A DNA stretch of 64,000 nucleotides from the sequence record MK373778.1; one strand, given 5' to 3'. Shown piece after piece: positions 10,947-17,081 of this stretch. This DNA comes from Escherichia phage vB_EcoM_WFbE185. The notes beneath the pieces were generated by a model. The model was not told the DNA's origin and searched no databases. It saw only the letters and a list, made by a program, of their open reading frames with translations. The position numbers and the translations under genes are program-made. Positions within the stretch are counted from its first letter, which is position 1, and each line of letters starts with the position of its first letter.

Positions 10947-11254
10947 CGTAAAGTCCCTGCAATTGGAATACTAACAATACGGCCTGTGTCCAGAATTCGT
11001 TGATACAATCTTTGCGTCTCCGCATCTAGTTTAACGTGTTTCATTTCAAGCTTATTAAACCAAAACTTACGCGGAGTTTCGACCATTCTTAGAACTCCCA
11101 TTTTTAAATCTGTTTTATACTGTGTTTTCAAAGTATCGAAAACTTTATCTGCAATATCCTTTCTAAAAAATACTGCAGGACGATGCTCATCAAGTGGAAC
11201 CGGGACAGTAAATCCTTCCATATCTCGATAAACTATTGCATATACATAAACCAT
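10943..11254 (-). CDS. hypothetical protein (dda.1 position)
   Basis: 103-aa ORF overlapping dda start by 4 nt. Confidence 0.45.
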   Translation of the reverse strand: MVYVYAIVYRDMEGFTVPVPLDEHRPAVFFRKDIADKVFDTLKTQYKTDLKMGVLRMVETPRKFWFNKLEMKHVKLDAETQRLYQRILDTGRIVSIPIAGTLR

Positions 11255-11256
11255 AA

Positions 11257-12003
11257 TTAACCTTTAATCAGTTGGAATAATGATGCGCTAAGTGGTAAGC
11301 CACGTTTCAATTTTAATTTACCAATGAAACCAATCTTTTCAAAACGTTGCAGACCTTGGATAACTTTATCATATGTATCGAAAAGCGATTCAGCGTCAGT
11401 TAATTTAGTTTTAGTTTTCCAGTCAGAGCCTTTAAGAAGAACGTTGAGTTTAGTAAGTTCATGGCCTTCTGCTTGATGTGAGCCATTAATGCGTGCTTTC
11501 AAAGCAACAATTCTAAGTTTAGATTCGTTAGATAAAGGTTGATTTTTCATCATGTTCGCCATATGCTTAACACGATTTTCACGTTTTGCTCGTATTTTTA
11601 AAATAGTATCATAAACCTTTTTAATTTGGGCCCATTTCTTCTCGTCGAGATTAAGTTTCTCTACTTTACGGGCAGAAGGATTAGCAATACGTCTTGCAAC
11701 AGCGTCACGTTTCTCAATAAGTTCTTCTAATGTTAAATCAGAACGAGCCGTGTTATATTTTTTCTTAACTGGGATAACATTACCTTTAATGTAGCCGATA
11801 TCGTTATTAAAACGTTCTAAGGATAATTTCTCACCTTCAACAGAGTTATTGAAAGATTCGCCTGAGTAAGCGCAGACCTTTTGATCAAGAATGTTTTTAA
11901 GGTAATTAAAGTCTAAGTTAAAATCCTTAGAGCGTCTCTTCGCAGAAGCTCTGGTGTGGTCAAGACGACGATTGATTTTGTTAATTTTATTATTTGATAA
12001 CAT
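11257..12003 (-). CDS. basic hypothetical protein (248 aa), positional counterpart of T4 srd
   Basis: Size and position only; contains SLERFNNDIGYIKGNVIPV, which loosely resembles an HNH-like motif. Confidence 0.4.
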   Translation of the reverse strand: MLSNNKINKINRRLDHTRASAKRRSKDFNLDFNYLKNILDQKVCAYSGESFNNSVEGEKLSLERFNNDIGYIKGNVIPVKKKYNTARSDLTLEELIEKRDAVARRIANPSARKVEKLNLDEKKWAQIKKVYDTILKIRAKRENRVKHMANMMKNQPLSNESKLRIVALKARINGSHQAEGHELTKLNVLLKGSDWKTKTKLTDAESLFDTYDKVIQGLQRFEKIGFIGKLKLKRGLPLSASLFQLIKG

Positions 12004-12053
12004 AATATTTTCCTCTGTCTTACGGACGTTAAGGTCATTTAGCTGATAAGTCT

Positions 12054-12082
12054 ATAATATCATGCCCTCAGGTAGTGTACAC
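12054..12082 (-). promoter_or_regulatory. early-type promoter (-35 GTGTAC, -10 TATTAT)
   Basis: Same consensus family; upstream of the 248-aa gene with SD GAGGAAA. Confidence 0.5.
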
Positions 12083-12097
12083 TCTTTTTTCGTAAAA

Positions 12098-12123
12098 TGC
12101 TTTAATTTTTTATGTGTTATAAT
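12098..12123 (+). promoter_or_regulatory. plus-strand middle-promoter-like element (MotA box TGCTTTA, 13 bp, TGt-TATAAT)
   Basis: aaaTGCTTTAattttttatgTGtTATAAT read on the plus strand, pointing antisense into the ADP-ribosyltransferase gene. Confidence 0.4.
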
Positions 12124-12156
12124 GGTTCTGAGTTCCATCCGGTTATTCCAATTCAG

Positions 12157-12765
12157 TCAGTAACTGACAATAGACAGATTCCAGATTGTATAACGTCCAT
12201 CTTGAATAATAGAATCTACACGCAGTGTAGTCCCTATAGGGAGCATAAATTCACATTCGTCGGATATAAGTCTAGCATTAGACCGTCTTGTCGCTTCAGG
12301 GAAAGCTCCATTGAACTCACAAGATGGCGCAGCCAGAATCATGTTAAGCATATGTTCACGGAAGTTGAAAGCAAATGGTGCATCTTTGATGCAGAACATA
12401 TTAAATGTTCCGTAAAAATTATACGAAGCAAAGTTACGTGCTACACCGAACACTGGGCTGAAGCTCATTACTCTGTCAAATTTAATAATACTACCAATGC
12501 CTTTATCATCGAGTGCGGCCATAGTTTTCTTAGAGATTCCACGATACATTGTCTCAGGAACAGAAGACGTCCAATTTCTACGAACGATTGAACTTAACTC
12601 CTGTTGAATACAGTCTGGCTTGTTTTCCATACACTGCCACAGTACACTTTGTTCAATGTCACTGAATTGACTATCAATTTCATACTGCAATTCATCTTGA
12701 TATTCAGGGTTTTGAGCACGACGAACCATTTCTTCAATTTCACACTCGTTATACGGCATAAACAT
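12157..12765 (-). CDS. ADP-ribosyltransferase, ModA/ModB family
   Basis: R-S-ExE triad: YRGIS, SFSPV, ECEFMLP; 202 aa, comparable to T4 ModA/ModB. Confidence 0.7.
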   Translation of the reverse strand: MFMPYNECEIEEMVRRAQNPEYQDELQYEIDSQFSDIEQSVLWQCMENKPDCIQQELSSIVRRNWTSSVPETMYRGISKKTMAALDDKGIGSIIKFDRVMSFSPVFGVARNFASYNFYGTFNMFCIKDAPFAFNFREHMLNMILAAPSCEFNGAFPEATRRSNARLISDECEFMLPIGTTLRVDSIIQDGRYTIWNLSIVSY

Positions 12766-12793
12766 TTAGGTTTCTCCTGTGGTTGATAGGTCT

Positions 12794-12822
12794 ATAGTAT
12801 CATCATCGGAAGAGTTTGTACA
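12794..12822 (-). promoter_or_regulatory. early-type promoter (-35 TGTACA, -10 TACTAT)
   Basis: GATAGGTCTATAGTATCAT consensus block between the two mod-like genes. Confidence 0.5.
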
Positions 12823-13404
12823 CTAAAAATTCAACATTTTCAAATGAATGATTTTGTATAATCGAGATAAAGGGTCATATTCTAAGTCTTCAATTTCCAC
12901 AATCTCAAATCTAGAGATACTTGAGACCATGTACTCTTGTTCAGATTCAATCATATCTAAGACGTCAACACGCGTTTCTTCCATAACATGTTTAGGGTTC
13001 TTTCCGGCGAGTACAATGTTAACCATGTTTTGGTAGTAATCAAAAATGAATGGAGCATTCCTGAGACTAAGAATAGTGTACGTCTGATATTCCCATCTCC
13101 CGGAGAATTGACGAGCCGTACCGAAATCAGTTGTGAACGATGTTACTCGTCCAGGAGACCAATGGCATCCAACAGAAAGAAGGGAAAGACGTTCTACTTC
13201 TTCTGGAGTTACACCACGGTAGAGTTCTACTGGTACTGTAGAAGTCATATGCTTACGAACAAGATGGTCTAATTCATAGTGGAAATCTGGGTCTTCCTTA
13301 GAATCGGTGCAAGCCCAGAGAATGTTTTGTTCTTGGCGGGTGAATTTGCTATCAATCAGATTTGTTAGGTATTCACGTTCTTGAAGTTCAGATTGACATG
13401 TCAT
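12823..13404 (-). CDS. ADP-ribosyltransferase, ModA/ModB family (second copy)
   Basis: YRGVT, TSFTT, EQEYMVS motifs; 193 aa. Confidence 0.7.
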   Translation of the reverse strand: MTCQSELQEREYLTNLIDSKFTRQEQNILWACTDSKEDPDFHYELDHLVRKHMTSTVPVELYRGVTPEEVERLSLLSVGCHWSPGRVTSFTTDFGTARQFSGRWEYQTYTILSLRNAPFIFDYYQNMVNIVLAGKNPKHVMEETRVDVLDMIESEQEYMVSSISRFEIVEIEDLEYDPLSRLYKIIHLKMLNF

Positions 13405-13431
13405 GATAGACCTCCATTTAAAGATAAGCCT

Positions 13432-13460
13432 ATCATAACACGAGAGGAGGGAATGTAAAC
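13432..13460 (-). promoter_or_regulatory. early-type promoter (-35 GTTTAC, 17 bp, TGt-TATGAT)
   Basis: GTTTAC-N17-TATGAT directly upstream of the second mod-like gene. Confidence 0.5.
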
Positions 13461-13620
13461 TACTTTTTAAGCTTTCCTACTAAAGGTCCATCAGGTCCAG
13501 GTTGTTCTAACATGAATAAGGATGCTTTAAAAAGCAATGTCATCCCTTTCACCATTCGATACCATGTCTCAAAGTCTTTTTCCTTGATTTCTAGTAAGAA
13601 TTTCTCTTTAAATTTCTCTT

Positions 13621-13809
13621 TCATTTCCAAGGACTCCATGGTGGAGGGTCGTCATAATAGGACGCAAGGTCTTTCAGGGCTTCAACAGGTAAACTAAAGC
13701 CGTGTCGTTGTATAATACTATCTAGTTCATCAACAAGTTCACTACGATGCACTTTAGGAGCCTCAACTTCAGGCTCGTCAAACATACTCATAAGGTCCAT
13801 ATTACTCAC
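13621..13809 (-). CDS. hypothetical acidic protein (62 aa)
   Basis: ORF in operon context. Confidence 0.4.
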   Translation of the reverse strand: MSNMDLMSMFDEPEVEAPKVHRSELVDELDSIIQRHGFSLPVEALKDLASYYDDPPPWSPWK

Positions 13810-14266
13810 CTAAATAAAAACTAGGCTGCTCGGAGAATGTTTCTAGCGCTACACCTTTTGTCTTAAAAAATTTCCAAATGGCTCGTTGCAAATGGATTAA
13901 ATCCGCTAATGATGTAATAAAGTATTTTTTGGCAAAATACTTATGGTCTCGCTTTTCAAACAAGTCTAAACGCTTTTCAGGATTCACATAAACGGCATTT
14001 TCCGTAGATTCATAACCTAAGTCCTTTATGCCTTCTTCAAGACTAAACGGAGAATTTTTAGAACGAGTAATAGCTCCAACTCGCTCTACACGAATTTTGT
14101 AACCTTTAGGAATCTGCAATTTGCAGAATTCTTCTACGATATATTGCGGATTATTTAGACTTTTGTTAATGAGAATAGCTATTTCTAGTGGAGTCTTATC
14201 TTCCACTGGTATATGTTTAAACGACTTGGCTTCAAGCAAGTACATTTTAAATAACATAGCATCCAT
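13802..14266 (-). CDS. hypothetical protein (154 aa)
   Basis: ORF; no recognised motif. Confidence 0.5.
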   Translation of the reverse strand: MDAMLFKMYLLEAKSFKHIPVEDKTPLEIAILINKSLNNPQYIVEEFCKLQIPKGYKIRVERVGAITRSKNSPFSLEEGIKDLGYESTENAVYVNPEKRLDLFEKRDHKYFAKKYFITSLADLIHLQRAIWKFFKTKGVALETFSEQPSFYLGE

Positions 14267-14445: not shown

Positions 14446-14633
14446 TCGCAGCTCCCTGAGCTTGAACCACAATCGGAATAACTTGACCCAGAATCACCAG
14501 GCCAAGACGATACGTATGAATGATTATAACTTGAAGAGTTTGAAGCAGACTTAGGACGAACAACTTCTTCCATCATTCCGTCACCGATATATTCCCAACT
14601 TTTTTCGTGTGTATCAGGAATAGGCATCATACC
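14442..14633 (-). CDS. hypothetical Ser-rich small protein (start moved to internal Met)
   Basis: Internal ATG preceded by GAAGG; the longer track ORF overlaps the upstream gene. Confidence 0.35.
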   Translation of the reverse strand, partial: GMMPIPDTHEKSWEYIGDGMMEEVVRPKSASNSSSYNHSYVSSWPGDSGSSYSDCGSSSGSCE

Positions 14634-16062: not shown

Positions 16063-17081
16063 ATCTTCGAATAACGAGATAATCTCATTTTAGCATGCAA
16101 CCCACTTGAAATATTCTGTTTCATATATTCTAAAATTTCTTGTGGTGTTGCATTTTCTTTCATTACCATATCATTCACATCCTTTGATCTCCATGGAGCT
16201 CGGTCCCAGAACATGACACGTTCGCCTGCATCAACTAATCGCTTCATGCGAGCTATAGTATCCGGATGCCTAGGTTCATTATCCATTACCCATACCCGAC
16301 GTTCTTTAAATGGTACCACATCTAAATCTATTGAGCCGCCTGTAATAGCGATTGCATTGGGTATGAATAAACTATCAATAGGACCTTCCATTACCCAGAC
16401 GTCTCCTTCCTTAACACGTTCAACACCATAAATTTTTGTTGCAGACTCAAACGCTTTAATAGTGATATATTTCTGAGGAGCATCTTTACGAAGTGCACGT
16501 CCTTGGAATGACTCGGCCTTCCCATCTTTATTAAAAATAGGAATCACTAAACGTGGTTCGGGAATCTCTTTCTTATACGTACCAGGTTGAATCTTGTTGA
16601 CCAATTTAGGCCATTCTAATGTGAACCATAATCTGTTCCATGATTCTTTAGGAATACACCGAGACTTAACATATTTCACAATAGGATGCTCTTCAGGCAA
16701 CTTGTCCAGACGAGAACAAGACGGCAAAGAATTTATAGTCTTTTTCTCTGGCTCCGGCTTAGCTTCAGGAACCTTTTCAATCTTTGGTTCCATTCTAGCT
16801 TTTTCTTTACGAACTTCCATTAGATATTCGCGATAAAGCTCTTCATCATACTCTTTTAAGTATCCGGAAATTGTATTGTGGTATTGACAATTATAGCAAT
16901 GTACATTACCAGGAGTACCACCGTAATACCATCCGCGGGCTTTCATTGCATCTGTCTGGGAGTCGCCACAAACTGGACATCGAAATGTTAATTTAAATGT
17001 GCTTGAATTATTGATTTGTCTAAAACGAGGGAGGTGAGAAAACGCACGATAAGCAAATTCATTATCTATCCATTCAGCCAT
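16059..17081 (-). CDS. 61: DNA primase gp61
   Basis: 340 aa; N-terminal zinc ribbon CPVCGDS...CYNC; context next to helicase gene cluster. Confidence 0.85.
   Translation of the reverse strand: MAEWIDNEFAYRAFSHLPRFRQINNSSTFKLTFRCPVCGDSQTDAMKARGWYYGGTPGNVHCYNCQYHNTISGYLKEYDEELYREYLMEVRKEKARMEPKIEKVPEAKPEPEKKTINSLPSCSRLDKLPEEHPIVKYVKSRCIPKESWNRLWFTLEWPKLVNKIQPGTYKKEIPEPRLVIPIFNKDGKAESFQGRALRKDAPQKYITIKAFESATKIYGVERVKEGDVWVMEGPIDSLFIPNAIAITGGSIDLDVVPFKERRVWVMDNEPRHPDTIARMKRLVDAGERVMFWDRAPWRSKDVNDMVMKENATPQEILEYMKQNISSGLHAKMRLSRYSKI

Follow-up and report, generated by a model that had tools for sequence, protein, structure and literature searches.

What could a middle-type promoter be for if it faces against every gene in its neighbourhood? 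The question is raised by a short element in the spacer between srd and a modA-like ADP-ribosyltransferase (ART) gene of Escherichia phage vB_EcoM_WFbE185 (MK373778.1), of which a stretch of 64,000 nucleotides, here called the window, was analysed. The phage is an RB69-like Mosigvirus, with 99.9% identity to p000y and 97% identity to RB69 over positions 11200-13500. In the RB69 annotation, every annotated gene from motB to gene 56 is on the minus strand and the nearest plus-strand gene lies about 4 kb off. The initial annotation had placed the element on the plus strand amid minus-strand neighbours only and had described it as aimed antisense into the ART gene at 12157-12765, and both statements agree with the RB69 annotation and with the assignment of this gene to phrog_832. 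The element is located in the 153-bp srd-modA spacer, with its -10 hexamer 34 bp past the modA stop codon, and the predicted plus-strand start, at about 12130, lies 27 nt before this stop codon. The gene families were obtained from PHROGs; a Pfam search of ModA, ModB, and Srd gave no match. The features of the locus are as follows:

12095 to 12104, plus strand: MotA box aaaTGCTTTA (TGCTTTA at 12098-12104, core GCTT at 12099-12102), read from the sequence
12105 to 12117, plus strand: 13-bp spacer between the boxes, whose last 3 bp, TGt (12115-12117), make an extended -10
12118 to 12124, plus strand: -10 hexamer TATAAT (12118-12123) followed by G (12124), read from the sequence
12130 to 12131, plus strand: predicted transcription start, 7-8 nt past the -10, inferred from sigma-70 promoter geometry
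12130 to 13404, 3' end not defined, plus strand: predicted untranslated antisense transcript over modA and possibly modB
11257 to 12003, minus strand: srd (phrog_1400; RB69 annotation)
12054 to 12083, minus strand: early-type promoter of srd, GTGTACA at 12083-12077 and TATTAT at 12059-12054 (RB69 model Pe:12088, score 31.8)
12157 to 12765, minus strand: modA-like ART gene, the presumed target (RB69 annotation; phrog_832; ExE motif in the translation)
12823 to 13404, minus strand: modB-like ART gene, a second possible target (RB69 annotation; phrog_832)

A middle-promoter sequence in the srd-modA spacer

By the published definition, a T4 middle promoter consists of a MotA box, (a/t)(a/t)(a/t)TGCTTtA, located 12 +/- 1 bp from the -10 sequence TAtaaT, and according to a review TGn is present in about half of the known T4 middle promoters. 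The window site at 12095-12104 agrees with the box consensus at all 10 of its 10 positions, the hexamer TATAAT is a full fit to the sigma-70 TAtaaT, and the distance of 13 bp between them is inside the allowed range. Direct reading of the sequence bears out the full-consensus MotA box and the TGn -10 on the plus strand, together with their coordinates. The formula in which the element was first written, TGCTTTA-N13-TGtTATAAT, is right as to both boxes and the 13 bp, but TGt belongs inside these 13 bp (12105-12117), not after them. The T4 middle promoters PuvsX, PrIIB2, and Pdda.1 likewise have a MotA box near -30 and a stringent -10 at 12 +/- 1 bp; unlike them, the element runs against all genes within about 4 kb and lacks an ORF that it could express.

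Such a combination is rare in the 64-kb window. The relaxed pattern TGCTTNA-N11-13-TANNNT gives 15 matches (10 on the minus and 5 on the plus strand) when 3.5 are expected, and the strict pattern TGCTTYA-N11-13-TATAAT gives four when 0.06 are expected, or about 0.03 per strand; the srd-modA site is the only strict match on the plus strand. Another strict match, TGCTTCA-N12-TATAAT, is located on the minus strand at 14523-14547, in the sense direction; about 1.1 kb separates it from modB downstream, and this interval contains no terminator-like site. It is also kept in the related locus L030 and is absent from the list of RB69 predictions published in 2006. Should this motif be active, the ART genes would lie between two converging middle promoters, one sense and one antisense.

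The element has left few traces in earlier work. The supplementary table of hidden Markov model predictions of Nolan et al. (2006) contains, for RB69, a plus-strand middle promoter Pm:12081 with a score of 7.9 and a 1-bp insertion, listed beside the srd early promoter Pe:12088 and given no comment; the 3' end of this model (Pm:12081-12122) maps to position 12130 of the window. The low score is due to the spacer being 1 bp longer. The table of 58 experimentally identified T4 middle promoters (Hinton, 2010) has no entry near 11.9 kb, the nearest being Pdda.1 at 11138 and P56/69 at 16813. In the T4 records NC_000866 and AF158101, no regulatory feature is annotated in the srd-modA region. Our literature search found no report of a plus-strand transcript at this locus, and negative primer-extension results may be contained in papers available by subscription. 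The Nivinskas group is said to have found that some good matches to the middle consensus give no transcript, and a test of this site may already exist in which it proved silent. Judged by its sequence, the element belongs to the T4 middle promoters, and it had previously been represented only by the uncommented RB69 prediction; no earlier description seems to exist of its deep conservation, its occurrence in T4, or its strict association with the ends of ART genes.

Conservation among T4-like phages

In T4 itself, aaaaaTGCTTTA-N12-TATAATg occupies the orthologous position with the same orientation (T4 11866-11890, 18 bp from the modA stop codon), within intergenic DNA that is largely unalignable with that of the window phage. 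Among Srd-containing phages sampled across genera, the antisense element is common to 11 genera, namely Mosigvirus, Tequatrovirus, Dhakavirus, Gaprivervirus, Winklervirus, Marfavirus, Jiaodavirus, Moonvirus, Kanagawavirus, Karamvirus, and Gelderlandvirus. In an alignment anchored on the -10, TATAATG is identical in 11 of 11 genera and GCTT is invariant 18-19 bp upstream, the box of Gaprivervirus being the variant cGCTTTT. The spacer between the boxes is 12 or 13 bp long in every lineage and its sequence is not conserved. Substitutions within genera are few, and all of them are in the spacer and none in the boxes. The combination of invariant boxes, a free spacer, and substitutions only in the spacer is the footprint of a promoter. 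The ART proteins are 25-48% identical between genera, so that the non-coding element is better kept than the ART gene beside it.

The Srd-based search of IMG/VR loci yielded four lineages, and the panel was widened by GenBank tblastn and by an ART-based search. In the latter, an independent search of IMG/VR seeded with ART, exactly one antisense-oriented copy per about 3.5 kb was found at each of 32 ART loci, which include many close relatives and correspond to about 12 independent lineages. GCTT is invariant in all 32, and the copy is always located past the last ART stop codon, at a distance of 4-47 bp in 31 loci and of 128 bp in the remaining one (L044), whose ART ORF is truncated. These comparisons, on which the initial annotation could not draw, give the decisive evidence: a footprint of deep phylogenetic age, whose place and orientation are retained in T4 and in about 12 lineages of genus rank.

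Three kinds of explanation would do without a promoter altogether: a chance match, a signal read on the sense strand (an RNA element, a terminator, or an UP element), or a small protein encoded on the plus strand. The AT-rich DNA of these phages does yield -10-like hexamers, and the low score given to the RB69 site by Nolan et al. (2006) would agree with a fortuitous match. Against this, about 0.03 strict matches are expected per strand in 64 kb, yet one position is kept in about 12 lineages, and the invariant positions are exactly those that define a promoter. Read on the sense strand, ATTATA...AAAGCA has no complementarity and no known meaning, and the spacer contains no hairpin. As for a protein, no conserved ORF is present: the antisense ORFs vary from lineage to lineage in where they lie and how long they are, and none is found in Dhakavirus and Moonvirus. 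The initial annotation had taken the plus-strand ORF to be probably non-coding, and this judgement stands. The ORF (159 aa, 12112-12591) starts inside the promoter, upstream of the predicted transcription start, has no match in Pfam or PHROGs, and is not conserved elsewhere, and a small plus-strand protein was rejected as a candidate. Explanations of this kind are taken together to be extremely improbable, and the element is probably a functional promoter in vivo, as far as its sequence and conservation can tell.

If the element is a promoter, it could in principle be one that does not use MotA. With TGtTATAAT, the window has TGn and a perfect -10, the contacts of which are, according to a review, unaffected by sigma appropriation, and such an extended -10 promoter could be open to unmodified host polymerase as soon as infection begins. 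However, TGn is missing in nearly all other lineages, being confined to Mosigvirus and one other locus, whereas GCTT at 12-13 bp is universal. It follows that selection maintains the MotA box and that TGn is at most an addition of Mosigvirus, and MotA-independent use of the element is considered very doubtful.

Association with ART genes, MotA, and the srd early promoter

The element has two neighbours, the ART gene and srd with its early promoter, to either of which it might belong. In the window, it stands back-to-back with the srd early promoter, its MotA box occupying the UP-element zone, 14 bp past the -35 element GTGTACA, and the same back-to-back arrangement is found in T4, Gaprivervirus, Dhakavirus, and Kanagawavirus. 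In Winklervirus, Moonvirus, Karamvirus, and Gelderlandvirus, the two promoters are face-to-face, with start sites a few bp apart. Where the predicted starts face each other within so few bp, simultaneous occupancy of both promoters would be impossible. Where dmd is inserted between ART and srd (L019, L049, and L051), the element stays beside the ART gene. We rejected the possibility that it is an accessory of the srd early promoter, as the arrangement flips between lineages and dmd separates the element from srd.

Several further observations were made around srd. In phages X20 (L018), Merlin (L021), EcL8g (L027), and LG358 (L028), the srd early promoter reads GTTTACA-N17-TAGAAT and is on the ART side, facing the element. 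In PEi20 (L022) and PhiKpNIH-6 (L019), the -10 region of this promoter lies between the arms of an inverted repeat, GGTGTAG...CTACACC. Just upstream of the srd ribosome-binding site, a motif CGTCCGTAAGA is conserved in Mosigvirus, Tequatrovirus, Gaprivervirus, and Dhakavirus (in the window as CGTCCGTAAG at 12019-12028, on the minus strand, in the srd 5' UTR; also at 2800-2809 of L002, in L004-L011, and in L020). It is partly deleted in two T4-like contigs (L016 and L017), and in Jiaodavirus JD18 it is part of the spacer that separates the MotA box from the -10. This motif may be an RNA processing or binding site.

The closeness of the two promoters suggests a role for the element by occupancy, in which polymerase with MotA and AsiA, parked at the perfect -10, would form a roadblock or an insulator where the ART genes end and would occlude the srd early promoter. 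This would fit the mutually exclusive, face-to-face arrangement with GTTTACA...TAGAAT in Winklervirus, Moonvirus, Karamvirus, and Gelderlandvirus, as well as the window, T4, Gaprivervirus, Dhakavirus, and Kanagawavirus, where the MotA box falls into the UP-element zone of that promoter; it would also fit a transcribed part that has no conserved feature. At loci of the Marfavirus type, however, no early promoter adjoins the element, so occlusion is not its universal role, and binding of polymerase to a perfect promoter would normally be followed by firing. Occupancy as the explanation of the element seems unlikely, and it overlaps with the production of an antisense transcript and does not exclude it.

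Which of its surroundings the element depends on can be approached through phages in which it is missing. Krischvirus MIZ5 has an intact ART gene adjoining srd and no antisense element, and no MotA or AsiA homolog was found in its syntenic t-52-rIIB block; RB49-type phages are reported to have neither motA nor the middle consensus. In the Erwinia phage IT22 (Roskildevirus), motA and asiA are present, the ART gene is split by an apparent frameshift, and the antisense element is lacking. Its ART gene abuts srd without a spacer and consists of two overlapping annotated ORFs (L025 888-1462), with the break, ...ADKLK* / MIEYETEWMVP..., located just before ExE; a frameshift, decay into a pseudogene, or an error of sequencing could each account for this break. 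Both phages, each a single case, agree and point to an element that goes with a working ART gene plus MotA. RB69, which is 97% identical to the window phage in this region, encodes motA and asiA, and both genes are located outside the 64-kb window. MotA was found in 1143 phage records, with the same spread over host genera as Srd.

The predicted antisense transcript and its possible function

The transcript that would start at about 12130 has little in the way of features of its own, and no sign was found of any product besides antisense RNA. A search of Rfam over 11000-14000 gave no match at E <= 1, and the fold of +1 to +131 is unremarkable (z = -1.55 in the window and -0.91 in T4) and not shared. 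No intrinsic terminator on the antisense strand is conserved across the 11 lineages, the first terminator-like site of the window being located at about +1984. Over the first 600 nt, C exceeds G in 11 of 11 lineages, which is compatible with Rho acting on untranslated RNA and proves nothing.

Small hairpins were noticed in the sequence that would be transcribed. Two of them are adjacent inside modA, CTACACGCAGTGTAG (12216-12230) and TCCCTATAGGGA (12231-12242), about 86-112 nt past the predicted antisense start and just after the ExE codons. The first is kept in Dhakavirus and Gaprivervirus with a paired synonymous change (CTACGC...GCGTAG), ARTs of the Marfavirus and Kanagawavirus type have GCTTCC-NNN-GGAAGC at its place, and T4 has no hairpin there; the codons of P-x-G (CCN...GGN) partly account for this pattern. 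T4 has an imperfect hairpin of about 14 bp, GAGTATAGATAGTGT...ACACTTTTTATACTC, at the 3' end of modA (L002 2935-2971, T4 about 11934-11970), 38-74 nt past its predicted antisense start, and this one was not seen in other genera.

A promoter with no gene to express recalls the T4 replication origins. According to a review, oriF (uvsY) and oriG (34) each consist of a MotA-dependent promoter and a downstream unwinding element, and the R-loop that primes leading-strand synthesis needs no specific sequence. Like the element, they have a MotA-type promoter whose RNA is not needed as a messenger, and oriA, which is thought to use a MotA-dependent transcript, is in the same general region, near soc. 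Unlike the element, they have an AT-rich duplex unwinding element. Here none was found: the AT content of +1 to +60 compared with the surrounding 1.5 kb is 0.60 vs 0.61 in the window and 0.72 vs 0.69 in T4, and the 11 lineages show no consistent downstream AT enrichment, so AT richness past the start does not rise above background. The mapped origins include none at modA-srd, oriA being about 3.5 kb away, and a role in origin function would explain neither the strict link to ART ends nor the loss of the element together with ART integrity. An origin of this type at the locus is quite improbable.

For the element as a MotA- and AsiA-dependent promoter of a non-coding antisense transcript that curtails the expression of modA and modB, we see somewhat better than even chances. 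In such a mechanism, MotA and AsiA would build up, and sigma-appropriated RNA polymerase would then start at about 12130 on the plus strand, firing from the early-to-middle transition onward. The untranslated RNA would run antisense through modA and probably modB, and expression of the ART genes would be cut after the early period. This might occur by one or more of three routes, head-on collision with sense polymerases, antisense polymerases sweeping over the ART early promoters, or formation of sense-antisense RNA duplexes that would be degraded, and the antisense promoter would also compete for space with the srd early promoter. We infer the role in ART shut-off from the position of the element alone.

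A similar arrangement is that of OOP RNA of bacteriophage lambda, a short terminated RNA which is made from a host-type promoter and is antisense to cII. In both cases, the promoter is located just past the stop codon of the target and faces back into it, and the target is a dose-sensitive regulator or a toxin. The element differs in that no terminator or defined RNA was found and that the timing would come from MotA, an activator encoded by the phage. A precedent for antisense transcription over a pre-replicative T4 gene would be that of gene 32, a different locus, reportedly described by Belin et al. in 1987.

A review describes the ART genes as early genes and ModA as highly toxic; the same literature states that it is unknown how early expression stops and that deletion of modA does not explain it. 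In this context it may be suggested, tentatively and with the odds somewhat against it, that T4-like phages, T4 included, possess an antisense switch, conserved and timed by MotA, that is reserved for their toxic ART genes: the factors that initiate middle transcription would also activate a promoter at the end of modA/modB and thereby silence them. If this is true, it would give the turning off of early genes a concrete and gene-specific explanation. Polymerase modified by ModA favours middle promoters over UP-dependent early promoters, and the switch would thereby form a feedback loop. Both ModA and ModB are toxic, and RNAylation has drawn current interest to them, so limits on their expression matter for cloning and engineering. 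The finding also bears on the treatment of antisense promoter matches in phage annotation, as middle promoters can be conserved for purposes beyond the expression of a downstream gene. The element is a testable candidate for gene-specific early shut-off in T4, the phage that serves as the reference for transcriptional takeover.
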